Of a stretch of DNA of 64,000 nt, positions 6,762 through 40,236 are shown piece after piece (the stretch's first letter is position 1; each line of letters opens with the position of its first letter). The DNA is from Gemmatimonadota bacterium (GTDB lineage: Bacteria; Gemmatimonadota; Gemmatimonadetes; Longimicrobiales; Gaopeijiaceae): the NCBI GenBank assembly GCA_039589315.1, contig JBDHHQ010000021.1, forward strand, positions 1-64,000. Direction: 5' to 3'. The position numbers and the translations under genes are program-made. The notes under the pieces are model-generated. The model had not been told where the DNA came from and made no database searches. It saw nothing but the letters and a program-made list of their open reading frames with translations.

Positions 6762-8477
6762 GTGATGATGCGACTCCTCGATCGGAGGGTCCGATCACGC
6801 AGCTCGGCGGTCATCTTCGCGATTCTGTTCACCGTCCCGGGTGCCGGCGGCCTGAAGGGCCAGGATGCACAGGAGGCGCAGGCGACGCTGGAAGAGGCCA
6901 ACGCCCTCGTCGCGGAGCTTGCCGAGCTCGACGGTTCCCTGGCGCTGCTACGGGAGTTGGCCGACGCAGGGTTGCCAGAGGACCAGGCACGAGTGGCGAG
7001 GCGGACGGCGACCTACTCGGCACAGAGACGCGCCGTCGTCTGGGACCTGGCGGAGCTGGTTGGACGACTGCCTGGCGATTCACTCTCTCAGCAAACCGTG
7101 GCGTTCGCCGACAGCGTGCTGACAGCCGAGTTGGGGACCATCGAGGCGGAGGCCCTCGCGCGATCGGAGGAGGCGGCCCGGATTCGGTTGAGTCAGTCCG
7201 ATGCGAGCCCTGCCACGCAGCTCGAGCTGCAGATCCGCCTGAACAGGCTGGACGGCCAGATCGCGCAACGTATCTCCGACTACGTAGAAACGTTGGAGCG
7301 GATGGAGGCCCGGGGCATCGACCGTCCCACCATCGTGGATCGGCTGGATCGTTTCCTGCTGGGCCGCGCCGAGATGGCCATCGCAGAAATGGACCTGGCG
7401 GCGGAGGATGCGGAGACTCTGGAGCGCGCCATCGCCACTGCCGGGGATGCGTCCGAGGCCGAAATGCGACTCCGTCTCGAGGTGGCGAGGTCCCGATTCA
7501 CCGACGCCACGGCGGCTTTGAGGGCCCTCATCGAGGTCATGGATCGACGCGGCATGGATACCGGGGACTTGAACGAAGAGCTTCTGGTCCGGTCCCGGGA
7601 CTTCACTCCCGAGAGCGTGGACGTCCAGGTGCTGGGGCTACTGGCGCGGCGATTCTCGGCCCGGGTCACGGCCTGGATCTCGGACAGCGGTAGCACGGCC
7701 GTCATCCGCGGTCTTTCGATCGTTGCGATCCTCTTGGTCTTCCGACTACTCGCGGGACTGACGCGCAACCTCACACGGCGAGCGGTTGCGACCTCACGAC
7801 TGAACCTGTCGCGGCTGCTACAGGACACCTTCGTGTCCTGGGTCGGCCGAGTCGTGATGATCCTCGGAATCCTGATCGCCCTGAGCCAACTGGGACTCGA
7901 CCTGGGTCCGGTTCTGGCTGGCCTCGGCGTGGCCGGCTTCATCGTGGGCTTCGCCCTGCAGGACACGCTGTCCAACTTCGCGTCGGGGATGATGATTCTC
8001 ATCTACCGTCCGTTCGACGTGGACGACCTGGTCGAGGCCGGAGGAGAATTCGGGACGGTATCCGCGTTGAGCCTGGTATCCACCACGCTGCTCACCATAG
8101 ACAACCAGCGGCTGGTGGTGCCCAACAGCCAGATATGGGGCGGCGTGATCCGCAACGTCACCGCACAGCGGGTCAGGCGCGTGGATCTGGTCTTCGGGAT
8201 CGGGTACTCGGACGACATCCCCAAGGCCGAGGAGGTCCTGAAGCGCATCGTAGCACAACACCCCAAGGTGCTCGATGACCCCGAGCCCGTCGTGAAAGTC
8301 CACAACCTGGGAGACTCGTCCGTCGACTTCGTCGTACGCCCGTGGTGCAACACCGACGACTACTGGGACGTGCATTGGGACATCACGAAGAGCGTGAAGA
8401 TGACCTTCGACGCCGAGGGCATCTCGATCCCGTTCCCGCAGCGGGATGTGCACATCCACGAAGCCACGGCGGACTGA
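6762..8477 (+). CDS. mscS: Small-conductance mechanosensitive channel (MscS family) with long N-terminal helical extension
   Basis: LAGLGVAGFIVGFALQDTLSNFASG, RPFDVDD, VPNSQIW, RRVDLVFGIGY, GISIPFPQRDVH. Confidence 0.92.
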   Translation: MMMRLLDRRVRSRSSAVIFAILFTVPGAGGLKGQDAQEAQATLEEANALVAELAELDGSLALLRELADAGLPEDQARVARRTATYSAQRRAVVWDLAELVGRLPGDSLSQQTVAFADSVLTAELGTIEAEALARSEEAARIRLSQSDASPATQLELQIRLNRLDGQIAQRISDYVETLERMEARGIDRPTIVDRLDRFLLGRAEMAIAEMDLAAEDAETLERAIATAGDASEAEMRLRLEVARSRFTDATAALRALIEVMDRRGMDTGDLNEELLVRSRDFTPESVDVQVLGLLARRFSARVTAWISDSGSTAVIRGLSIVAILLVFRLLAGLTRNLTRRAVATSRLNLSRLLQDTFVSWVGRVVMILGILIALSQLGLDLGPVLAGLGVAGFIVGFALQDTLSNFASGMMILIYRPFDVDDLVEAGGEFGTVSALSLVSTTLLTIDNQRLVVPNSQIWGGVIRNVTAQRVRRVDLVFGIGYSDDIPKAEEVLKRIVAQHPKVLDDPEPVVKVHNLGDSSVDFVVRPWCNTDDYWDVHWDITKSVKMTFDAEGISIPFPQRDVHIHEATAD

Positions 8478-17722: not shown

Positions 17723-20494
17723 ATGAAGACGCGCGTTTCCCGCATGCTCACGGCAACCGCAGGGGCCAGCCTGGCGCTGGCCCCTTGGCTCGCCATACCG
17801 GCCCTTGCCCAGGGCAAGGTGAGCAGGGATCAGCCCGCAGCGGTGGTGACCCCCGCGGACGAGCGTCCAACCATGCGGGCCTATCCGCTGGACGAGCCGC
17901 TGACAATCGACGGCCGCCTGGATGAGGAGGCGTGGTCCCGCTACCCGTCGGCTGCCGGCTTCATCCAGAAGGAGCCGGTCGAGGGCGCGCCGGCGATCAA
18001 CGACAGCGAGGTGTGGGTCTTCTACGACCCGGGGGCGATCTACGTCGGCGCCATCCTCCACGACGAGACTCCCTGGGCCATTCCCGCGGGGCTGGCGCGC
18101 CGTGATGCGCCGTACGGCGGGCAGTTCGACTACTTCGAGGTGATGTTCGACCCGAACCTGGACCGGTTGACGGGCTACCGGTTCCGGACGACGTCGGCCA
18201 ACGTCCAGACCGACCGCTACCTCTTCAACGACGGCGGCGAGGACGCCAACTGGGACGCCGTCTGGGAGTCGGCGGTGACCATCGACGAGCGTGGCTGGAT
18301 CGTCGAGATGCGGATCCCCCTGTCCCAGATGAGATACGAGTCGTCGGCGGATCCACAGACGTGGGGGATCAACTTCGGCCGGCGCAGGTCCCAGGACAAC
18401 GAGCTCACCCGGTTCGCCCTGGAGTCGAAGCTGGTGCCGGGTCGCGTGAGCCAGTTCGGGCACGTGGAGGGTGTCGTGGCGGAGAAGTCGCGGCGCCTCG
18501 AGATGCGCCCATACGTGGTCACGAGCGCCCACGTGGGCACGGCCCAGGAAGGGGATCCCTTCTTCGACGGCAGCGAGCTGGACGGTCGTGTGGGCGTGGA
18601 CCTGAGGTACGGCATCGGCACCAACTTCACCCTGGACGCCACGTTCAACCCCGACTTCGGGCAGGTAGAATCGGATCCGGCGGTCATCAACCTCTCTGCT
18701 TTCGAGGTCTTCTTCGAGGAGCGAAGGCCCTTCTTCGTGGAGGACGCCCGGGTCTTCGACTTTCGTATCTCGGGGGGCGCCAGCGACCTCTTCTACACGC
18801 GCCGGGTAGGCCGCGAGCCTCAGGGAAGATCGCCCTCGGAGGCATCCTTTACCGATGTGCCCGAGGCCACCACGATTCTTGGTGCGGCGAAGCTCACCGG
18901 ACGCACCGCCGGCGGACTCTCACTGGGTGCGTTGGCCGCCGTGACGTCGAAGGAGACGGGCCGCGCCTACTTTCCGGACGGAGAGGTCATCGAGTCGTTC
19001 CCGGTTCAGCCTCGCGTGGGCCATGCCGTGCTGCGCCTTCAGCAGGACATGCGCCAGGGCGCCACGTCGGTGGGCGGGATGGTCACGTACCTCAACCGGG
19101 CCCTGCCGTCGGACGGGACGTTCGACTACCTGACCGCCGACGCTCTCACCGGGGGGCTCGACTTCGAGCACTACTGGGGCGACCGTAACTGGCGGCTCTG
19201 GGGCTTTGGCACCTACAGCCATATTCAGGGCGATTCCACCGCCATGATCCGGGTCCAGCGGGCGAGCAACCACTTTCGTCAGCGACCCGACAACGAGTTC
19301 AACCCCATCGACTCCACTGCCACGGCGCTGAACGGGGGCGAGTGGCGGCTCCAGCTCGAGAAGGCCAGGGGCAAGTGGACGGGGGCGCTCTGGACGGCGC
19401 AGATCGGGTCGGGGTACGAGATCAACGACCTGGGCTTTCGGACGTCCATGGAGCGGCTGGACGGCGGGGCACGGGTCGCGTTCCAGGAGGTCACGCCGGG
19501 CACCATCTTCCGGAACTACTCGGTATCGCTGTCCACCTTCCACAATCTGAGTCACGAGCTACTGGAAGGCTCCCTCACGTGGGACCGGATCCGGTGGGCC
19601 CAGACCTCAGGCCGCGTGGGTCTCGAGGCCAACTTCGTCTTCAACAACTTCTGGGGGATCCAGGCCGAGGTCGACTACGTGCCGGAGCGCATGAGCCGGA
19701 CCCTGACCCGTGGCGGACCCCGCATGGTGTCGCCGGCCGGCGCGGAATGGGAGCTGGAGTTCAACACTGACAACCGGCAGGTGCTCAGCATTCGCCCGTC
19801 GGTGGCCTTCAGTCAGCGTTCCCAGGGAGACGGCTCCACCCTCGATGCCCGCGTGCCCATCGTCTGGCAACCTTCGTCCCAGGTGCAGGTCCAGGTGTCG
19901 CCGGGCTACGGCGTGGGGAGCACGGGGTCACAGTACGTCTTCACCTCAGACGCTCTCGAATACGAGCCGACCCTCGGTGACCGCTACCTGTTCTCGGACC
20001 TCGACCAGACCGGCTTCTCCATGGAGACGCGGCTGAACTGGACCGTCAGCCCGACGCTCTCGCTCCAGCTCTGGGCCCAGCCTCTGCTGTCGTCGGGGAA
20101 CTACGTCACTTACAAACAGCTGTCCCTTCCCGAGACCTTCGACTTCGACGTCTTCGAGGAGGGGGTGTTCGAGGAGGACGTGGACGGCGTGATGTGCGTG
20201 GGGGGTCGGACGTGCACCGACGGCGAGGGCACCCGCTACGTGGATTTCGACGGCAACGGGGCTGTCGACGACTCCTTCCAGGACCAGGACTTCAACGTCC
20301 GGTCGTTCAGGGCCACGGCGGTCCTGCGGTGGGAGTACCGTCCGGGATCACGGCTCTTCTTCGTCTGGCAGCGGCGACAGGGGGAGCGGGTGAACGTGGG
20401 CGACTTCGACTTCGGCCGGGATCTGGGGGCGATGTTCGGTGCGCCCGGCGACGACGTGTTCATCATCAAAGCGGACCTCTGGATTCCCCTCTGA
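17723..20494 (+). CDS. DUF5916 protein with N-terminal CBM9-like domain (probable outer-membrane protein)
   Basis: Signal peptide; IDGRLDEEAW, WDAVW, EMRIPLSQMRY, WGINF, LDATFNPDFGQVESDPAVINLSAFEVFFEERRPFF. Confidence 0.88.
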   Translation: MKTRVSRMLTATAGASLALAPWLAIPALAQGKVSRDQPAAVVTPADERPTMRAYPLDEPLTIDGRLDEEAWSRYPSAAGFIQKEPVEGAPAINDSEVWVFYDPGAIYVGAILHDETPWAIPAGLARRDAPYGGQFDYFEVMFDPNLDRLTGYRFRTTSANVQTDRYLFNDGGEDANWDAVWESAVTIDERGWIVEMRIPLSQMRYESSADPQTWGINFGRRRSQDNELTRFALESKLVPGRVSQFGHVEGVVAEKSRRLEMRPYVVTSAHVGTAQEGDPFFDGSELDGRVGVDLRYGIGTNFTLDATFNPDFGQVESDPAVINLSAFEVFFEERRPFFVEDARVFDFRISGGASDLFYTRRVGREPQGRSPSEASFTDVPEATTILGAAKLTGRTAGGLSLGALAAVTSKETGRAYFPDGEVIESFPVQPRVGHAVLRLQQDMRQGATSVGGMVTYLNRALPSDGTFDYLTADALTGGLDFEHYWGDRNWRLWGFGTYSHIQGDSTAMIRVQRASNHFRQRPDNEFNPIDSTATALNGGEWRLQLEKARGKWTGALWTAQIGSGYEINDLGFRTSMERLDGGARVAFQEVTPGTIFRNYSVSLSTFHNLSHELLEGSLTWDRIRWAQTSGRVGLEANFVFNNFWGIQAEVDYVPERMSRTLTRGGPRMVSPAGAEWELEFNTDNRQVLSIRPSVAFSQRSQGDGSTLDARVPIVWQPSSQVQVQVSPGYGVGSTGSQYVFTSDALEYEPTLGDRYLFSDLDQTGFSMETRLNWTVSPTLSLQLWAQPLLSSGNYVTYKQLSLPETFDFDVFEEGVFEEDVDGVMCVGGRTCTDGEGTRYVDFDGNGAVDDSFQDQDFNVRSFRATAVLRWEYRPGSRLFFVWQRRQGERVNVGDFDFGRDLGAMFGAPGDDVFIIKADLWIPL

Positions 20495-20567
20495 TCCCTG
20501 GTTATCTCTGTCGCGTGGCAGAGCCGCATTCCTCTTCCAACTTGCGCACCAGCGAGGCGCAGCCCCC

Positions 20568-21650
20568 ATGAGCCACCAGGCCGTACGCATCGCCGGTTCG
20601 GGCAGCTACCTGCCCGACCGGAGGTTGGACAACTTCGAGCTGTACGATCTGCCCTCCATCCAGGCGGCGTTCGACGTCGAGCGGGCGCGCGGCTCCCTGA
20701 AGGACATGCCCGACGCCGGGGAGCTCCCGCCCCCCGAAGTGTTCGACCGTTGGGCGGTCCAGGTCACCGGGATCAGCGAGCGGCGGGTTCTGCCCAAGGA
20801 CCGAAGCGTGACCACGGAAGACATGTGCGCGCAGGCGTCCCTTCGGGCCCTCGAGGCGGCGGGGATGGCGGCCTCCGACCTCGACTTGATCTACGTCGCC
20901 TGCCTGACCGGTTCGGATTCGGTGCCCAATCCGGCGTGCACGGTGGCCGAGCTCATCGGCGCTCCGGCCCTGGGGGGATACACGCTGAACGCGGCGTGTG
21001 CCGGATTCATCCACGCACTGGGAACCGGGTATGCGGTGATCCGCTCCGGCATGGGGCGCAATGTGCTCGTGGTGGCCGGAGACGCGTTGTCTCATATCAC
21101 CGACTATGGAGACCCCACCACCGCGGTCCTGTTTGGCGATGGCGCTGGGGCCACGGTGCTGACGCCCTCCGAGGCGGGGGACGGGGTCGTGGCGGCCCCT
21201 GTGATCCTCGGCAACTACCAGAGGGATCCCCTCTTCCTGTTGGGACAGGGCTGGGAGACGGAGGAGGATCCCGACCCCAAGCTGCGCATGGGTGGCGGAC
21301 CCCGAATCCTCAGGCGGGCCATCGGGTCCATGATCCGTGTGGCCGAGGAGGCGCTGGAACGGGCGGGGAAGGGCTGGGACGATGTGGACGTGGTCGTGCC
21401 CCACCAGGCCAATCTGCGGATCACGAAGGGGATGGAGAAGCAACTCGACGAGCACGATCTGCGCGTGGTCCACAACATCCAGCGGTACGGCAACATGTCC
21501 GCCTCGACCGTCCCGGTGGCCTTCGACGAGGTGCTACGGGGCAAGCATGGCCCACTGCCCGATCCTGCCACTATCGTCCTGACCTCCATCGGCGGCGGCT
21601 ATGCGATCTCGGCGGCCGTCGTGGAGTGGAGGGGCGGGGTAGTGGGCTGA
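20568..21650 (+). CDS. fabH: Beta-ketoacyl-ACP synthase III
   Basis: TGISERR; catalytic triad in NAACAG, PHQAN and YGNMSAS; LFGDGAGA. Confidence 0.9.
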   Translation: MSHQAVRIAGSGSYLPDRRLDNFELYDLPSIQAAFDVERARGSLKDMPDAGELPPPEVFDRWAVQVTGISERRVLPKDRSVTTEDMCAQASLRALEAAGMAASDLDLIYVACLTGSDSVPNPACTVAELIGAPALGGYTLNAACAGFIHALGTGYAVIRSGMGRNVLVVAGDALSHITDYGDPTTAVLFGDGAGATVLTPSEAGDGVVAAPVILGNYQRDPLFLLGQGWETEEDPDPKLRMGGGPRILRRAIGSMIRVAEEALERAGKGWDDVDVVVPHQANLRITKGMEKQLDEHDLRVVHNIQRYGNMSASTVPVAFDEVLRGKHGPLPDPATIVLTSIGGGYAISAAVVEWRGGVVG

Positions 21651-21665
21651 CCCGATCACTTTCGC

Positions 21666-22355
21666 ATGCTGGGCTCTCAGTTCGTGGTCCTGGTCGTTCC
21701 TCTGGGCTTGAGAAGGCTCGCCAGGTATTTGGCCGGGTTCTTCACGTCCACGCCTCTCGACCCGCCAACCGCGAGGAGTCCCCGCCCGGCCCAGCGTTTC
21801 TCCTACTTCGATGCTTGGCGGCACGAGGCGCTGGTGTGCGACTGCGGCTGGAGCGGACCCCTTGGCCCTGATCAGGTCGAGCCCTACGAGACCCTCATGG
21901 AGTTCTGCTGTCCCGAGTGCGACACGGCGCTCGCCATCGTGACCTACCCGACCGACGAGGAGATGCTCGCGAACCTCGGCAAGCTCTCGAAGAGCGAACG
22001 TGCCGGCGTTTTGAAGCGTCATCAGTTCATCGAGGAAGCTGGCCGCCTTGCCCTCCAGAGTCCCGAGCAGCTACCGGATCTCGAAGGCGACACGCTCGAG
22101 CTCCTGTGGGACTTCGTAACGGAGGACGGGACCCGCTACACAGTGATTCGTCACGCGGCCACGGTGGTATGGAGAGAACTGGCCATCTGGCAAGGCATCG
22201 AGCGTTTCGAGGAGATCGCGGCGATGTTGAAGGCGCGGTACGGAGAGCGGTTACACGACCTGATTCCGACCGAAGCGAGCGAGCTCTACCTGTACGGAGA
22301 CAAGCTGTCGGGTCCTGACAGGGTGGAACGGATCCGGGAGACGTTGTCGCCGTGA
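21666..22355 (+). CDS. Hypothetical protein with Zn-ribbon-like motif (true start may be downstream)
   Basis: VCDCGWSG...FCCPECD; protein-like composition. Confidence 0.6.
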   Translation: MLGSQFVVLVVPLGLRRLARYLAGFFTSTPLDPPTARSPRPAQRFSYFDAWRHEALVCDCGWSGPLGPDQVEPYETLMEFCCPECDTALAIVTYPTDEEMLANLGKLSKSERAGVLKRHQFIEEAGRLALQSPEQLPDLEGDTLELLWDFVTEDGTRYTVIRHAATVVWRELAIWQGIERFEEIAAMLKARYGERLHDLIPTEASELYLYGDKLSGPDRVERIRETLSP

Positions 22356-22613
22356 CATGACGTCTGCTTTCTCCTCGTGGGCGGGACGACGTCGAACCCC
22401 ACTACAACGCACCGACTCGCGATCCGGTCCGTGAACTCGGATCCGGGCACCGGACCTGGCAGGACCCCCCGTCGCTCGCGTCCGCTTGACTCTTCCTTGA
22501 CCCCAGTGTGGCAACGTGCTCCCGGAGAATCGAGCCGGGAGACCGCCATGCGAAGTCCGCTGCGTCGCTCCCTGCGGGACGACGGAACGGGCCCTATGGG
22601 TCAGGAGGTCGCA

Positions 22614-23480
22614 ATGAGGAAGCCTCGCGGGTTTCGAATCGCTCTGGTCCTGATAGCCTCGTGCCTATGCCAACCACTGGTCGCACAACTGCCGAGGGGC
22701 GAGGTCCCCAGCGCCGATCCGGGCGCGCTGCAGAGGATCGAGCTGTCGGACGGCACCGAGCTACGCGGCTGGGTCGTCGTCGAGGATAACCCGATCCAAT
22801 TCCGCCTGATCTCCGGACATGTTCTCGAGCTCGAGCGGTCTGGGATACGGAAGATCACGCCCGCCCGAGGCCAGATCGTGGACGGTAAGTTCGTCCGCGA
22901 AGACCCGAATAGAACTCGCCTGTTCTTCGCGCCGACCGGGCGCGGGCTGTCCAAAGGACAGGGGTACTTCGCGGTTTACGAGATCGTCATGCCCTTCTTG
23001 GCCGTGGCACCGGTGGACAACTTGGTGCTGTCGGGTGGCACGCCACTCCTGTTCGGAGGTGGGGGGGACCGCCCGTTCTGGTTCGCCCCGAAGGTGCGGG
23101 TCGCCGGGGGAGAAAAGGTAGACGTAGCGGTGGGCGCCATCGCGATCGGAGGCCTGGGCGGCGGTGATGTGGCCGGGATCGCGTTCGGGGTTGCCACCTT
23201 CGGGGACCACGCGCAGGCACTGACCACGGGGATCGGGTTCGGGTGGACCGGTTCGGAATGGTCCGACAAACCCGTGGTCATGATCGGGGGTGAGATCGCG
23301 GCATCGAATGGGATCAAGTTGGTGAGCGAGAACTACTTCCTTCCTGGCGAGGGAGGGTTGGTGAGCCTGGGGCCCCGCTTCTTCGGTGAGCGGCTCACGG
23401 CCGACCTGGGAATCGCAGTGCCCCTCACGGGCGGGGAGACCTTCGCGTTCCCGATTGTCAACTTCGTCTGGAACTGGTAG
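22614..23480 (+). CDS. Exported hypothetical protein, probable small beta-barrel
   Basis: AGGAGG RBS; signal peptide; TRLFFAPTGRGLSKGQGYF; beta-strand pattern; terminal FVWNW. Confidence 0.75.
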   Translation: MRKPRGFRIALVLIASCLCQPLVAQLPRGEVPSADPGALQRIELSDGTELRGWVVVEDNPIQFRLISGHVLELERSGIRKITPARGQIVDGKFVREDPNRTRLFFAPTGRGLSKGQGYFAVYEIVMPFLAVAPVDNLVLSGGTPLLFGGGGDRPFWFAPKVRVAGGEKVDVAVGAIAIGGLGGGDVAGIAFGVATFGDHAQALTTGIGFGWTGSEWSDKPVVMIGGEIAASNGIKLVSENYFLPGEGGLVSLGPRFFGERLTADLGIAVPLTGGETFAFPIVNFVWNW

Positions 23481-33684: not shown

Positions 33685-34323
33685 ATGACCGAACGACTTC
33701 GGAACACAGGAGTCGCAGCGGCGCTCATCGTGGCGCTGAGCGGGTCGGCGTGCTCCGAGCCGACTCCGGGCCTTGCCCGGGGCGACGCTCTGTTCGACAC
33801 CTGCGTTCCTTGCCACGGCGCAGAAGGTCAAGGAAACCGGGAGCTTGGAGCGCCCGCCATCGCCGGACTACCTCAATGGTACGTCCAGGCCCAGCTCGAG
33901 AAGTTCGAGTCGGGATGGCGGGGCGCCCATCCGATGGACACGGTAGGGATCCGCATGAAGTCCATGGCGCGCTCCCTCGACCTCGAGGGCGACCTGGAGT
34001 CGGTGGCCGAATACGTGGCCACCATGCCGCCCACGGATCCCCAACCCGTTCTGCACGGTGACGCGCAGGCCGGTCAAACGGTCTATCAGGGAACCTGCAT
34101 CGCTTGCCACGGCCCGGACGGGCGGGGCAACGAGGCGTTGAACGCACCGCCGCTGGTGGGTCAGAGCGATTGGTACCTTCTGGCCCAGTTCCAGAAGTTC
34201 CGGAAGGGTTGGAGAGGCACGAATCCCAACGATACCTGGGGCTCGACCATGTACCCCAACTCCCTGCTCTACGAAGACGCCGCAGTGGAAGACGCCCTGG
34301 CCTACATCCAGACCTTGCAGTAG
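33685..34323 (+). CDS. Diheme cytochrome c4-like lipoprotein
   Basis: Lipobox SGSA-C; CVPCHG and CIACHG; APAIAG / APPLVGQ; Met ligands (IRMKSM, STM). Confidence 0.93.
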   Translation: MTERLRNTGVAAALIVALSGSACSEPTPGLARGDALFDTCVPCHGAEGQGNRELGAPAIAGLPQWYVQAQLEKFESGWRGAHPMDTVGIRMKSMARSLDLEGDLESVAEYVATMPPTDPQPVLHGDAQAGQTVYQGTCIACHGPDGRGNEALNAPPLVGQSDWYLLAQFQKFRKGWRGTNPNDTWGSTMYPNSLLYEDAAVEDALAYIQTLQ

Positions 34324-34338
34324 GGACACGATACGCGC

Positions 34339-34521
34339 ATGAGCAACGAAGTGAGTGCCCCGAAGGAGAATCTGCCGGTGGACGAAGCTTCCATCGAGGA
34401 CGCCTATCTGGCGATCCCCGACGAGGAGAATCCACCCATCATCGACGCTCGCAAGACGTTCCGCGTGACCGTGATCATGGCGATCCTGTTCATCGGAAGT
34501 GTCTTCGTCTTCATTCTTTGA
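34339..34521 (+). CDS. Small single-TM protein in oxidase operon
   Basis: 60 aa; acidic N-terminus and C-terminal TM helix; fills the gap between cyt c4 and subunit II. Confidence 0.7.
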   Translation: MSNEVSAPKENLPVDEASIEDAYLAIPDEENPPIIDARKTFRVTVIMAILFIGSVFVFIL

Positions 34522-34543: not shown

Positions 34544-35311
34544 ATGATCGAGAGTCTGATTCAGCAAGCATCGTCGTACGCGGCGTCCATCGACGGGATC
34601 ATCCTGTTGATCGCCGTGCTGGTGGGGTTCTGGTTCATCCTGGCAGAGGGCGTCTTCTTCTGGCTGATCCTGAAGTTCCGGGCCAAGCCCGGGCAGAAGA
34701 GCGACTACATCACCGGCAAGGAGAAGCATCTCAAGCGGTGGATCACGATTCCCCACGCGCTGGTGCTGCTGTGCGACGTCTTCATCGTCATAGGCGCAGT
34801 CCGGGTCTGGCATGAGGTCAAGCTCCAGCTGCCCGAACCCGACGCGACTGTCAGGGTCATCGGCCAGCAGTGGGCGTGGGTGTTCCAGCACCCAGGCCCC
34901 GACAACGAGTTGGACACCGGCGACGACATCTTCACGACCGACGAGCTGCACGTTCAGAACGATCGGACGTACCACTTCCAGCTCCAGTCGCGAGACGTGG
35001 TCCACAGCTTCTCGGTGCCGGTCTTCCGCCTCAAGCAGGACGCGGTCCCGGGCCGGACCATCACCGGTTGGTTCCGTCCTACGCAGACGGGTGAGTTCGA
35101 CATCCAGTGCGCCGAGATCTGTGGAATCGGCCACGGCGTTATGGGGGCCCGGATCCACATCGAGAGTGAGAGCGAACACGCCACCTGGATGGCGCTGAAC
35201 AGCCCTGGGGACGGCACCGGCTTGGCACTAGCCGGCCCGGTGGATGCCCCGGCACTCGCTCCGGCAGCGGACCACGACAGCCACGACCACAGTCCGTCGA
35301 ACACCCAGTAG
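34544..35311 (+). CDS. coxB: Cytochrome c oxidase subunit II
   Basis: Two TM helices; GQQWAW; DVVHSF; CuA motif CAEICGIGHGVM. Confidence 0.95.
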   Translation: MIESLIQQASSYAASIDGIILLIAVLVGFWFILAEGVFFWLILKFRAKPGQKSDYITGKEKHLKRWITIPHALVLLCDVFIVIGAVRVWHEVKLQLPEPDATVRVIGQQWAWVFQHPGPDNELDTGDDIFTTDELHVQNDRTYHFQLQSRDVVHSFSVPVFRLKQDAVPGRTITGWFRPTQTGEFDIQCAEICGIGHGVMGARIHIESESEHATWMALNSPGDGTGLALAGPVDAPALAPAADHDSHDHSPSNTQ

Positions 35312-35329: not shown

Positions 35330-37039
35330 ATGGCTCAGGCCGCCACGATTGCCGAGGGTGCCGAGCACCACGCTCACGAGCACCACGGTCCCCAGGGGAT
35401 CCTGAAGTACATCTGGTCCACCGACCACAAGATCATCGCCATGCAGTATCTCTTTACGGGGATGTTCATGGGTGTGATCGGTGGTCTGATGGCGTACGTG
35501 TTCCGTATGCAGCTGGCTTTCCCGGGTGTCTCGGTCCCCGGCTTCGGCGTGGTCTCGCCCGGTGAGTACAACGCACTCGTGACGAACCACGGGTCCATCA
35601 TGATCTTCTGGGTGGCGATGCCCGTATTGATCGCCGCCTTCGGGAACTTCCTGATCCCCCTGATGATCGGGGCGGACGACATGGTGTTCCCCAGGATCAA
35701 CCGGCTGTCGTTTCAGATCTTCTTCCTGAGCGCCGTCCTGATCCTTCTCTCGCTGGTGGTGGAGGGTGGCGGCTTTGGGGGCGCCTGGACGGCGTATCCG
35801 CCGCTTTCAGCCAATTCGGCCTACAACCTGACCAAGCTGGGCGCGACGCTCTGGCTCCTGGCCGTGGCGCTCGAGTTCGTGGCTTTCCTGCTGGGCGGCA
35901 TCAACTTCATCACGACGTTGATGAACTCCCGAGCCCCCGGGATGAAGGCCTACGACATCCCGCTGGTCTGCTGGATGATCGTGATCGCCAGCATCATCTT
36001 CATGCTGTCGGTGGGCCCGCTCATCGCAGGCGCGGTGATGCTGCTCTTCGATCAGGTGATCGGTACCGGCTTCTACGACCCGACCCGAGGCGGGGACCCG
36101 ATCCTCTGGCAGCACCTCTTCTGGTTCTTCGGCCACCCCGAGGTGTACGTTGTGTTGCTGCCGGCCATCGGCATCGTGATCGACGTCGTGGCCACCTTCG
36201 CCCGCAAGAAGGTGTTCGGCTACAAGATCATGCTCTACACGGCGGTAGCCACCGGCGTGTTGAGCTTCTTCGTCTGGGCGCACCACCAGTTCGTCGCCGG
36301 GATCGACCCCCGGATGGCGAACATCTTTACGGTCACGACGCTGCTGATCTCGGTGCCCATCGCCGAGTTGTGCTTCGTAATCATCGCGACGCTGTATCGA
36401 GGGTCGATTACGCTCAATACGCCCATGCTCTGGGCACTCTCGTTCATCGCAGAGTTTCTGATCGGCGGTGTCACGGGGATCTTCCTGGGAGCCAGCGGCT
36501 CGGATATCTACCTGCACGACACGTACTTCGTGTTGGCGCACTTCCACTACACGTTCTTCCCCATCGCCATCATCGGGGCATTCGCCGCGCTGACGTACTG
36601 GTTCCCGAAGATGTTCGGGCGGATGATGAACGACACTCTCGGGAAGATCCACTTCTGGGGAACGATCATCCCGTTCAACTTCATCTTCATTCCGCTGTTC
36701 GTGCTCGGGTTGGGTGGTCAGCACCGCCGGATCTACAACTTCCAGAATTTCTCCGAGCTGGCGGCCATGCAGCCCTACCGGGTCCTGGCCACGGTGTCGT
36801 TGATCGTCATGCTCCTCTTCCAGCTGGTCTTCTTCTACAACTTCTTCCGGAGCATGCGGAAGGGAGAGGCGGCAGGCAGGAACCCGTGGAAGGCAAACAC
36901 CCTGGAGTGGACGGCGGAATCGCCGCCGCCCCACGGCAACTGGCCCCGTGACGAGATGCCCCGCGTCTACCGCGGTCCCTACGAGTACGGGCACCCGGAC
37001 CGTGAAGAAGACTACTGGCCCCAGAACCTTCCTGCCTGA
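35330..37039 (+). CDS. coxA: Heme-copper oxidase subunit I, A1-type (divergent K-channel)
   Basis: H87, GHPEVY (H269/E271/Y273), WAHH (H318/H319), LHDTY, AHFHY (H404/H406), RR pair. Confidence 0.97.
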   Translation: MAQAATIAEGAEHHAHEHHGPQGILKYIWSTDHKIIAMQYLFTGMFMGVIGGLMAYVFRMQLAFPGVSVPGFGVVSPGEYNALVTNHGSIMIFWVAMPVLIAAFGNFLIPLMIGADDMVFPRINRLSFQIFFLSAVLILLSLVVEGGGFGGAWTAYPPLSANSAYNLTKLGATLWLLAVALEFVAFLLGGINFITTLMNSRAPGMKAYDIPLVCWMIVIASIIFMLSVGPLIAGAVMLLFDQVIGTGFYDPTRGGDPILWQHLFWFFGHPEVYVVLLPAIGIVIDVVATFARKKVFGYKIMLYTAVATGVLSFFVWAHHQFVAGIDPRMANIFTVTTLLISVPIAELCFVIIATLYRGSITLNTPMLWALSFIAEFLIGGVTGIFLGASGSDIYLHDTYFVLAHFHYTFFPIAIIGAFAALTYWFPKMFGRMMNDTLGKIHFWGTIIPFNFIFIPLFVLGLGGQHRRIYNFQNFSELAAMQPYRVLATVSLIVMLLFQLVFFYNFFRSMRKGEAAGRNPWKANTLEWTAESPPPHGNWPRDEMPRVYRGPYEYGHPDREEDYWPQNLPA

Positions 37040-37050
37040 GGTCCGATCAA

Positions 37051-37623
37051 TTGGATAAGCCCATCGCGACCACGCGCTACGCTACCGGGATCCCCACCGG
37101 CCGTCTGGCTGTCTGGTGGGTTCTCGCCTCCGAGGTCGTCATCTTCGGGGGCCTGCTGGCGTCCTATCTCATGTTCCGGCTCGGTCATCCGGAGTGGGCC
37201 GACGCCGCGGCGCACACCAACACGTGGATCGGCGCATTCAACACCTTCGTCCTGCTTACGTCGAGCTTCACCGCGGTCCTGGCCCACCAAGCCGCGGAGA
37301 AGGGCGACGGGCAGCTGGCGGCCAAGTACCTGGGGTTCACCATCATCGGTGCGGCCACCTTCATCGGCGTGAAGAGCTTCGAGTGGTACTCGGAGATCAC
37401 CCACGGCTATACCATCACGGCGAACGGATTCTGGAGCTTCTACTACACGGCGGCGGGGCTGCACGCGGCCCACGTGATCGCAGGCGCCGTCATCATGGCG
37501 TTCGTCGCGAGGGACGCGGCGCAGAACAAGGAGCTCCACCGGGTGGAGCTGATCGGAATCTATTGGCACTTCGTGGACGTCGTCTGGATCTTCCTGTTCC
37601 CCCTGCTCTACATCGCGAAGTAG
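37051..37623 (+). CDS. coxC: Cytochrome c oxidase subunit III (short form, copy 1)
   Basis: LASEVVIFGG, NTFVLLTSS, FYYTAAGLHAAHV, YWHFVDVVWIFLFPLLY. Confidence 0.93.
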   Translation: MDKPIATTRYATGIPTGRLAVWWVLASEVVIFGGLLASYLMFRLGHPEWADAAAHTNTWIGAFNTFVLLTSSFTAVLAHQAAEKGDGQLAAKYLGFTIIGAATFIGVKSFEWYSEITHGYTITANGFWSFYYTAAGLHAAHVIAGAVIMAFVARDAAQNKELHRVELIGIYWHFVDVVWIFLFPLLYIAK

Positions 37624-37630
37624 GTACGAC

Positions 37631-38374
37631 ATGTCGGATCAATCCGGGCACGACATCAACTACAAGAAGATCTATTACACGCTGCTGATCCTGCTGGTGA
37701 TCAGCGTAGCGGGCCCGTTCTTGGGGATCTTCTGGGTCACGCTCATCACGGCCTTCGGGATCGCCTTGGTAAAGGCCAACCTGGTCGTCCAGAACTTCAT
37801 GCACCTGAAGACCGAGCGGCAAATCATGAAGTGGTTGCTGGCCGGGTCTCTCGTGCTCATGTTCCTGCTGTTCGCCGGTGTCGCCGCGGACGTGATGAAG
37901 CACGAAGGCGCCAATTGGGAGAACACGGCTGCCAAGGCCGCCGTGGCCCGGGGAATCCCGGACGCCGACCACGCCGAGGAGTCGGGTGAGGAGCACGGCG
38001 AGGGGTCCGGTGAGGAATCGGGTGCCGAGGCGGGGGCGCCGGAGGGTGGGGCCGCTGTGGCGGTCGCTGGGGCGGCCGAAGCCGCCGCGTTCGACGCCGA
38101 GGGCGCCTTCCAGGCGGTGTGCGCCACCTGCCATGGCTTGACGGGCGGCGGCGACGGGCCGGGTTCGGCGGCCCTGGAGCCCAAGCCCGCGGCCTTCGAC
38201 GACCGGGCCTTCTGGGAGACGCGCACCGAGGCCGACATGGTGACGGTCATCCTGCAGGGCGGTGCGGCGATCGGTAAGTCGCCCCTGATGCCCCCCTGGA
38301 ACGCGCTCTACGACCAGGCAAAGGCCGAGGCCCTGGTTGCCTACATCCGGGAGACCTTCGCGCCCGCCAGCTGA
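37631..38374 (+). CDS. Cytochrome c oxidase subunit IV fused to a monoheme cytochrome c
   Basis: IALVKANLVVQNFMHLKTE subunit IV motif with 3 TM; acidic linker; CATCHG...SPLMPPW. Confidence 0.88.
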   Translation: MSDQSGHDINYKKIYYTLLILLVISVAGPFLGIFWVTLITAFGIALVKANLVVQNFMHLKTERQIMKWLLAGSLVLMFLLFAGVAADVMKHEGANWENTAAKAAVARGIPDADHAEESGEEHGEGSGEESGAEAGAPEGGAAVAVAGAAEAAAFDAEGAFQAVCATCHGLTGGGDGPGSAALEPKPAAFDDRAFWETRTEADMVTVILQGGAAIGKSPLMPPWNALYDQAKAEALVAYIRETFAPAS

Positions 38375-38407: not shown

Positions 38408-39001
38408 ATGGAAGCCTCGACCTTGACGTTGGCGCGCCGCGAGCCGCAGCCGTCACCCCAGCTGCTTGCGAGCAGCGTGCTGGGCATGCTGCTGTTCGTA
38501 TTCACGGAGATCATGCTCTTCTCCGGCTTGATCTCGGCCCACGTCATCTTCCTGTCGGGCCGGGTGGGCGAAATCTGGCCGCCTCCCGGACAGCCTCGTC
38601 TGCCGTTCCAGGAGACGGCCCTGAACACGACGGCGCTTCTGGTGAGCGGCGTGGTCTTGCTCATTGCCCGGCTGGCGTACGCCAAGAGCCCGCGCCGGGC
38701 TCTCGTTCCCATGGCGATCTCGGTTCTGCTCGGCGCATTCTTCGTCGCCGCCCAGGGTGCGGAGTGGCTGGACCTGATCCGCGAGGGGCTCACGATGACG
38801 TCGAGCACGTACGGGGCCTTCTTCTACCTGATCGTGGGCACTCACGCGGTACACGCGGTGGCCGCCATCTTCGGTCTGGCGTGGGCTTGGCTGCGACTGC
38901 GAACAGGCGAGCTCAACAGCGCCCACTTCGACACGGTCCAGATCTTCTGGTATTTTGTGGTGCTCGTGTGGCCGGTGATCTACTTCCAGGTGTACGTGTG
39001 A
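38408..39001 (+). CDS. Cytochrome c oxidase subunit III-like (copy 2)
   Basis: FVFTEIMLFSGL, WPP, NTTALLVS, QGAEW, FYLIVGTHAVH, FWYFVVLVWP. Confidence 0.9.
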   Translation: MEASTLTLARREPQPSPQLLASSVLGMLLFVFTEIMLFSGLISAHVIFLSGRVGEIWPPPGQPRLPFQETALNTTALLVSGVVLLIARLAYAKSPRRALVPMAISVLLGAFFVAAQGAEWLDLIREGLTMTSSTYGAFFYLIVGTHAVHAVAAIFGLAWAWLRLRTGELNSAHFDTVQIFWYFVVLVWPVIYFQVYV

Positions 39002-39231
39002 TGGCTCATCGCTGGATCCCCATGCTGGTGCTGGTGCTCCTGGTCGCTCTGCCCGAGGCGATCTTCGCCTGTCCCGTCTGCTTCGACGCGAGCGCCGAGA
39101 ACCGCGTAGCGTTTCTGAAGACCGCCATCGCTCTGTCGGTCCTGCCATTGGGACTGGTGGGAGGGACAGGCCTGTGGCTACGCAAGCGGTGGCGGGAGCT
39201 GTCCGGCGAGTCGGACGAAGATCTGGGCTGA
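39001..39231 (+). CDS. Small membrane protein with CPVC motif
   Basis: Signal peptide ending IFA-CPVCF, then one TM helix; abuts the previous stop. Confidence 0.75.
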   Translation: MAHRWIPMLVLVLLVALPEAIFACPVCFDASAENRVAFLKTAIALSVLPLGLVGGTGLWLRKRWRELSGESDEDLG

Positions 39232-39407: not shown

Positions 39408-39956
39408 CTAGGCCGGGGTGCCGCTCAAGTCCGCTACGTCGTTCCCCGCGTTGGCGCTCTCCCCCTGCTCCGCCTCGGCAGAGAGATGGGCTCTCCGGAG
39501 GAACGCCGTCATGGCTGTGGCCGTGAGCGCGTTGGCGACCAGGATGCTGCCCGCCCCGATCCGCCCGGCCACTCCTGGCATGATTACGCTGGCGCTCATC
39601 AGGAATCCGGCGGAGGAGAGCACGAAGAGCGCGCCGGCGGAGGCCGAGAAGGAAGTGGCGCGCGCCTCGACGAAACGGACGACCCAGGAGGCCAAGAGGC
39701 CCAGTATCATGAACGCGAGGATGTGGACGATCGTGGTCAGCGCCACCGCGTCGAGCCGGACCGCGCTCACGGCATCTGCGGCCTCGCCGAAGAACAGCAC
39801 GCTGCCCACCAGTGAGGGCGTGAAGAGCGGTTGCCCACCGATCGTGTCGAGCACCAGGAAGAAGAGCGCGACGACGGCCCCGCCAATGGCACCGGAGTAG
39901 AACGACTCGTACAGGACATCGGCCATCGTGGGCGGGCGGTGGTTCTCGTGCGTCAT
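39408..39956 (-). CDS. Hypothetical membrane protein (about 4-5 TM)
   Basis: Purine-rich RBS; GAIGGAVVALFFLVLD...GQPLFTPSLVGS, TIVH. Confidence 0.75.
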   Translation of the reverse strand: MTHENHRPPTMADVLYESFYSGAIGGAVVALFFLVLDTIGGQPLFTPSLVGSVLFFGEAADAVSAVRLDAVALTTIVHILAFMILGLLASWVVRFVEARATSFSASAGALFVLSSAGFLMSASVIMPGVAGRIGAGSILVANALTATAMTAFLRRAHLSAEAEQGESANAGNDVADLSGTPA

Positions 39957-40236
39957 CGGACCTCTCCCTCCGGGCAACCAGGAGCCCGGACCTGCCGTAG
40001 TAGGCTCTACTCCCCCGAAAGCGTGAGCCTCTGGCGGAGTTCCGTGCGGAATGGCATCGATCGACCCGGGGGAGGGGAGACCCGGGACGGTCGCGCCGAG
40101 GTCCGCTGTGGGAATAAAGGCAACAGTAGGGCCTTCGCGCCCCCTTGGCGAGGGGCCCGGGGGCGGTGGTGCGTCGGTGGGCCCGATTGCCCGGCGGGTA
40201 CCCGGTGCCGACCGCTGCCGAGGGCGCCCTCGAGGC

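Follow-up and report, generated by a model that had tools for sequence, protein, structure and literature searches.

The subunit I gene at positions 35330..37039 (+) of the window, i.e. the whole stretch of 64,000 nucleotides from a Gemmatimonadota bacterium that was analysed here, encodes an intact A1-type (GHPEVY) heme-copper oxidase without the K-channel lysine. The enzyme likely reduces O2 to water, and we hold it to be slightly better than an even bet that most or all of its protons enter through a D-channel that is reinforced by an additional glutamate, E182. The existence of two proton channels and the need for the lysine at the first reduction step represent a long-standing question, for which nearly all studies have relied on dead-end mutants. 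In this enzyme, the K-channel was removed naturally from both subunits, and several near-complete genomes appear to have no other terminal oxidase; hence, it probably turns over at useful rates. If it is working, it would be a natural test of proton delivery in heme-copper oxidases with named candidate compensations: E182, the residue S341 that is recurrent across lineages, and E346 together with H71/D78 of subunit II. Lysine-less oxidases of the A family are already known as a kind, little explored biochemically; what appears new is a branch with its own residue signature.

The open reading frame codes for 569 aa and matches PF00115. Its HMMER alignment with subunit I of Rhodobacter sphaeroides (1M56; Rs numbering) shows 0 gaps through helices IV and VI-X, and an AlphaFold model based on a 92-sequence alignment (pLDDT 93) has continuous helices VIII (327-355) and IX (364-386). 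A register slip is therefore ruled out by the gap-free alignment and the unbroken helices VIII/IX. Chance or a sequencing error is likewise ruled out, because the substitutions are conserved in the 120 top-ranking homologues, which include the window's own sequence and have 82-100% identity; among these, E182, F186 and E346 are each found in 120/120, position 347 is L or M in 120/120, and E375 occurs in 111/120. All six His ligands (H87, H269, H318, H319, H404, H406), the tyrosine Y273 at the cross-link position (36146..36148, +; invariant) and the D-channel residues D117, N106, N124 and E271 are kept, as the earlier note had read from the sequence. The six His plus Tyr agree with a heme-copper O2 reductase, in which the cross-link itself is putative here, and the helix VI motif H269-P-E271-V-Y273 places the protein in the A1 type. 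Likewise, the readings by eye that T316, K319 and S255 of the bovine enzyme are exchanged for I344, L347 and I284 were confirmed by the gap-free alignment and the model helices (Rs K362, T359 and S299, respectively), and the helix IV Ser-Ser pair indeed corresponds to A185/F186 (Rs S200/S201). The glutamates proposed at apolar sites are real for E346 (Rs I361), E375 (Rs L390) and E182; however, E182 replaces Rs S197, a residue used in defining the D-channel volume according to passages of PMC10341450, and thus represents a change of the D-channel rather than a random apolar site. The remodelled upper D-channel with E182, A185 and F186 is located at 35873..35887 (+), the helix VIII positions S341 (Rs A356), I344, E346 and L347 at 36350..36370 (+), and E375 in helix IX at 36452..36454 (+).

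The model's top Foldseek matches are the aa3 oxidases of R. sphaeroides and P. denitrificans, and subunit I shares with canonical aa3 enzymes (1M56/2GSM, 1AR1, bovine 1OCC) the fold (TM 0.85-0.87, rmsd ~2 Å) at 37-42% identity in structural alignments. Besides the six His, the Tyr and the HPEVY motif, the common features comprise D132/N121/N139/E286, the Mg site H396/D397, R466/R467 and the CuA-bearing subunit II. An assignment to family A is supported by the D-channel core (Rs D132, N121, N139, S142, Y33, N207), the CuA subunit II and the tree placement. The retained D-channel does not fit family B, in which it is absent, and matches to ba3 only reached an E-value of ~1e-12 vs 1e-120 for family A. 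The TIGR02891 score of 587 bits is under the cut-off of 670.75. The enzyme differs from the canonical two-channel A1 type in that K362, T359, S299 and E101 of subunit II are all lost, in the exchanges S197E and S201F, in the presence of S341, E346, E375, T304/T308 and subunit II H71/D78, and in its operon, where subunit III is encoded by two short genes, subunit IV is fused to cytochrome c, and two small proteins of no known family are present.

The substitutions are characteristic of a well-delimited group of sequences. When the full-length members are clustered at 50%, essentially one representative (83% identity) remains; outside of this cluster one partial match of 62% was found, and the remaining full-length matches are at ~45%. 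A scan of 2/64 parts of GTDB, from which the best 80 of 598 relatives were kept, contributed 19 members, and the titles of branch members include Gemmatimonadota, Myxococcota, Bdellovibrionaceae (Bdellovibrionota), Puniceicoccaceae (Verrucomicrobiota), Eisenbacteria and others. One branch operon (L041) stems from a MAG titled Klebsiella pneumoniae; since it groups with Eisenbacteria/Myxococcota-type members, this label is probably unreliable. From all loci we obtained 189 distinct subunit I sequences, of which 32 belong to the branch (>62% identity, counting the window's), 137 have the lysine, and the remaining 20 are lysine-less without being branch members. None of the conclusions draws on genomes flagged as unpublished. 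The suggestion that the substitutions co-occur with the loss of the lysine was borne out by this comparison: in the branch, Lys is found at the K362 position in 0/32 and Thr/Ser at the T359 position in 0/32, while E182 is present in 31/31 covered members, S341 in 32/32, E346 in 31/32, T/S304 in 31/31 and T308 in 29/31, and S200/S201 are replaced by A/F in 31/31 covered members. In contrast, E182, E346 and E375 each occur in 0/137 and S341 in 1/137 of the lysine-bearing set, from which T308 is also absent. Of the three new glutamates, that at position 375 is the most variable, as this position is acidic in 28/32 branch members (E in 27, D in 1) and T in the other 4. D117, N106, N124, S127, Y40, N192 and E271 of the D-channel are invariant wherever covered. 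D285 was considered as a novel acid and rejected, because D/E285 occurs in 60/137 lysine-bearing enzymes. Two further peculiarities were noted: Q320 (36287-36289), directly after the CuB His pair, is found in 32/32, and the stretch of helix X after the heme ligands (residues 404-413, ~36539-36568) is branch-specific with T408 and P411 in 30 and 26 covered members.

The gene is part of a group of eight co-directional genes, whose layout recurs across the branch. It begins with a di-heme cytochrome c (33685..34323, +; start codon inferred, PF00034 twice, 22/23 branch loci), which is the likely electron donor, and a 60-aa single-TM protein (34339..34521, +; no Pfam/NCBIfam match) as candidate extra subunit; a similar single-TM ORF occupies this position in 20/21 loci examined. 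The following gene encodes subunit II with PF00116 and a complete CuA ligand set in the PDB alignment (34544..35311, +). Downstream of subunit I follow the first copy of a short subunit III (37051..37623, +; PF00510), a fusion of subunit IV with a cytochrome c domain (37631..38374, +; PF03626 and PF00034, TIGR02229 above cut-off), the second short subunit III (38408..39001, +; PF00510), and a small protein of 76 aa (39001..39231, +), which contains a CxxC motif as well as a TM helix, has no Pfam/NCBIfam match, recurs in branch operons and has only unnamed neighbours in the Atlas. Operons with a COX3 doublet are named in passages of PMC6431628. Beyond the operon, no protein family was found in more than 4/23 loci. 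Subunit II is also remodelled. The K-channel entry Glu (Rs E101) occurs in 2/29 branch vs 110/111 lysine-bearing enzymes, with L63 in the window's protein at the position of E78 of P. denitrificans (Pd), and its second TM helix carries the new residues H71 (34754-34756, +) and D78 (34775-34777, +), which both occur in 29/29 branch vs 0/111 lysine-bearing enzymes. Together with the loss of K362, T359 and S299, the loss of the entry Glu indicates that the K-channel has been dismantled on both subunits. On the other strand, the window encodes a 189-aa membrane protein without Pfam match (39408-39977, -). Three further copies exist in the same genome, and homologues, often with two repeats, adjoin A-family oxidase operons in the Gemmatimonadota loci L011, L012, L015, L017, L027, L078 and L081.

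The phylogeny was analyzed with IQ-TREE using 51 hand-picked rows and two Tyr-less enzymes as root. The crown of the branch received a support of 100/100, in agreement with the supposition of a distinct oxidase clade. It is situated inside a lysine-less group of 16 rows (100/100), which itself lies inside a group of 33 rows (100/100) together with many lysine-bearing enzymes. A single clade of all 31 lysine-less rows, a group that was residue-defined after earlier trees had been seen, was rejected with p-AU 5e-33. Nesting among lysine-bearing enzymes and rejection of a single clade indicate that lysine loss is derived and occurred repeatedly. This speaks for the possibility that channels without lysine are derived and not ancestral, different from the view of Degli Esposti et al., in which such channels are maybe ancestral. 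The tree also orders the changes. The sister lysine-less rows already have E/D182, S341 and mostly F186 and D78 of subunit II, while E346, E375, H71 of subunit II and the fixed T304/T308 pair are restricted to the crown, with E346 and H71 arising on the same tree branch. Judging from the sequences compared, Ser/Thr at position 341 recurs across independent lysine-less lineages. It occurs in 63/80 lysine-less vs 1/100 lysine-bearing sequences, and over 10 independent pairs 5.9 changed the same way and 0 the opposite way (median p 0.031, range 0.016-0.125, for one of 13 positions and uncorrected). Among the positions listed in this independent-pair test there was no convergence signal for E346, E375 and E182, so that these residues were rejected as convergent lysine replacements. 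An acid at position 182 is present in 26/80 lysine-less sequences; most other lysine-less lineages are without E182, which is thus not a general fix. Additional variants of the K-site were observed, namely Gln or His at the K362 position in family A proteins such as P0155, P0160, P0174, P0177 and others, and Glu at the 338 position in 11/80 lysine-less rows as further independent variants.

The earlier note had regarded the enzyme as the best candidate for an undescribed system in the window, which is weakened by earlier work. Lysine-less A-family oxidases were catalogued in 2020-21, but the signature of the branch is not among their rows. Family A is treated as having two conserved channels in passages of PMC11214002. 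Sections of bioRxiv 10.1101/2020.03.01.968255 describe lysine-less family A oxidases with a loss of E78 of subunit II, and Table_1/Table_3 of PMC8239418 catalogue lysine-less A oxidases as 'KC-channel', 'hybrid' or 'modified'. The branch shares with this set the loss of K354 (Pd) and of E78 of subunit II, the kept D-channel and polar helix VII residues at C-family positions. By offset mapping, the window's enzyme falls into this category with L347, L63 of subunit II, and D285/T304/S312 at the columns of Y227/H247/Y255. The category is descriptive and not a clade, as seen from the p-AU value given above. Unlike the branch, none of the catalogued rows has Ile at T351; their A1 entries comprise Elusimicrobia, HR19, Methylacidiphilum and Halobacteriovorax/Bacteriovorax, and the tables do not score E182, E346, E375, S341 or H71/D78. 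Our literature search, which covered sources other than subscription journals and bioRxiv supplements, gave no description of the branch, and the A-family set of Murali 2024 may include members.

Evidence for the function of the enzyme came from related genomes. In a 201-genome sample of the phylum, the gene is carried by 13 relatives from 4 genera of the window's family; they were picked for carrying it, are 96-100% complete, and 6 are single-contig. In 9/13, the lysine-less subunit I is the only PF00115 match, and the other 4/13 have a second match whose helix VI is without Tyr and which is, by motif, a putative eNOR. Cytochrome bd was found in 0/13 relatives. Five sole-oxidase genomes encode complex I (5/5), full-length NrfD-family proteins (5/5) and cytochrome b (3/5), and heme A synthase is present in 4/4 genomes tested. 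A search for AOX gave matches in 0/4 relatives, with the control also without match in the same search. An expression look-up found runs that contained 6-10% of the words, and the assembled contigs were short, mixed fragments. According to passages of PMC11214002, the active-site Tyr is a stated marker of O2 reductases. Since no other heme-copper enzyme with the Tyr and no bd was found in these 13 relatives, the lysine-less enzyme is most likely the working terminal O2 reductase of these bacteria, although their kinship reduces how independent this evidence is. Instead of it, further genera within this family have ~50%-identical enzymes, which are lysine-bearing in the three that were read.

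Nitric oxide reduction or another altered chemistry, the latter a suggestion of the earlier note, appears very unlikely. It might be considered because several NOR families derive from oxidases and gained glutamates, as stated in parts of PMC11214002, and eNOR, sNOR and nNOR have a CuA-type subunit II like the branch, with a conserved Glu of sNOR in the region of the K-channel. However, all NOR families of this type covered there are without the Tyr, and eNOR, sNOR and nNOR are B-family-derived, while the branch enzyme groups within family A and keeps an invariant Y273. Furthermore, the CuB ligands are invariant, there is no CuB-site Glu apart from the usual E271, NirK does not exceed the cut-off in any of the five sole-oxidase genomes, whose NirS-family matches are all partial (~80 aa), and the window's genome as well as 4 relatives encode a separate enzyme without Tyr in addition. 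Hence, a changed chemistry is not supported for an enzyme beside which the relatives have no other candidate terminal oxidase. The window's own genome further encodes three additional heme-copper enzymes. One is a second lysine-less A1 operon (G000:C27:74976-78711, L027), which is independently derived and has two subunit III genes and Thr at 341. The second is a canonical lysine-bearing A1 subunit I (G000:C43:99794-101456, L028) with a frameshift near 101030, either an assembly error or a pseudogene, which adjoins a bd-like/cytochrome c gene cluster. The third is the Tyr-less enzyme with a CuA-type partner (G000:C6:114046-116396, L029), which has counterparts (L126-L129) in 4/13 relatives; all five are presumably eNOR-like by motif.

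How such an enzyme obtains its protons is the central issue. According to passages of PMC12901375, the D-pathway can carry up to seven of the eight protons and the K-channel is needed at the O->E step, where the exchange K319M in canonical enzymes blocks heme a3 reduction. A supply by the D-channel only would consequently need something more. Since E182 and S341 accompany the loss of the lysine, we favour a D-channel supply with a residual polar pocket. Electrons would flow from cytochrome c, i.e. the operon's di-heme protein and the subunit IV-cytochrome c fusion, via CuA and the low-spin heme to the binuclear centre. The proton for the first reduction step, normally delivered by the K-channel, would arrive via D117-N124-E182-E271, and S341 could stand in for the hydroxyl of T359 one turn higher. 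The old K-channel would be reduced to a short polar pocket around S341 near the active-site Tyr. E346, H71/D78 of subunit II, T304/T308 and E375 might then be polar residues that were added later in particular lineages, at interfaces of helices and subunits, and that tune rather than found the mechanism. Further observations speak against the D-channel supply. Two serines of the D-channel are exchanged for A185/F186, by which it might be narrowed, and E346, H71 and D78 are near-invariant in the crown, which fits a role in a functional path no less than a structural one. A narrowing by residues of the F186/A185 type would be in line with mutant data. Among the literature matches listed, there was no mutant study of the oxidase residues S197/S200/S201.

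F186 at the S201 position could restrict the D-channel, which keeps a variant with reduced or no pumping alive, albeit as an improbable one; some of the chemical protons would then enter over a short distance or from the P-side, e.g. through D78 of subunit II. The A/F exchange at S200/S201 in all covered members and the predicted position of D78 high in TM2, deduced from published depths, would fit, but the whole lower D-channel and E271 are invariant, and a poorly coupled sole oxidase would presumably be costly.

As a tentative alternative to the D-channel supply, a K-type path might have been rerouted through a new chain of helix VII, helix VIII and subunit II residues to Y273 (D285, T304, T308, E346, H71, D78, S341), with an E346-H71(II) relay in place of K362. 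The near-complete conservation of E346, T/S304, T308 and H71/D78 and the lack of E346, T308, H71 and D78 in lysine-bearing enzymes point in this direction, as does the joint appearance of E346 and H71 in the tree. Moreover, passages of PMC9335260 locate the K entrance between helix VII and helix II of subunit II, H71 would lie roughly level with E346, and D78 close to Y273, if 1.5 Å per residue are applied to the depth ladder in parts of PMC10341450, and offset mapping assigns D285, T304 and S312 to 'KC-channel' columns in Table_3 of PMC8239418. In its boldest version, to which we assign the same tentative status, a cross-subunit path E346-H71(II)-D78(II) with T304/T308/S341 would lead to the Tyr and be combined with a second relay Glu in the D-channel of an enzyme that serves as sole oxidase of whole genera, possibly with an altered pumping stoichiometry. 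However, sister lineages have lost the lysine and are without E346 and H71, the member L039, apparently an isolate named Puniceicoccaceae bacterium K14, has H71 but not E346, and no conserved N-side entry acid is found in place of E101. On an ideal helix, E346 points ~100 degrees away from the K362 site and ~200 degrees away from the T359 site. The idea that E346 or E375 replaced the lysine is weakened by these sister lineages, which have neither of them, and as to the question whether they line a path to Y273, the wheel of an ideal helix places neither residue on the K-channel stripe.

Finally, the additional glutamates could have been related to Na+ transport, with E375 and/or E346 binding Na+ in a Na+-translocating A-family oxidase, which seems very unlikely. 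Buried carboxylates are indeed new in this enzyme, and E375 is on one helix face with T382, which takes the place of the conserved helix-IX Glu in cbb3 oxidases. This cbb3 Glu is reported to be a Na+ ligand. Like the branch, C-family cbb3 enzymes, including the Na+-pumping one of Thioalkalivibrio, have a K-type path without lysine and a Glu in helix IX. However, this Glu aligns with T382 when anchored on the heme His pair, i.e. seven residues from E375, which itself is Thr in 4/32 members, and unlike cbb3 the branch has the helix-VI Tyr of family A, the D-channel and the CuA subunit. The window's genome carries Na+-NQR-like and Rnf operons, but NqrB/RnfD are absent from 4/4 sole-oxidase relatives. 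The Na+ ligands of F-ATPase c-subunits are Gln/Ser/Tyr according to passages of PMC10532065; these residues are missing from the c-subunits in 5/5 genomes, which are thus of the H+-type. A Na+ gradient could also serve other consumers, hence, missing Na+ traits only lower the probability of a Na+ pump. Altogether, the suggested Na+ site is poorly supported by the H+-type c-subunits, the lacking NqrB/RnfD and the misalignment of E375 with the cbb3 Glu. In the window's genome, these Na+-NQR-like and Rnf operons, along with a second rotary ATPase whose c-subunit is duplicated, were located at G000:C1 ~154863-158930, C29 ~19062-23015 and C16 ~7800-8200.
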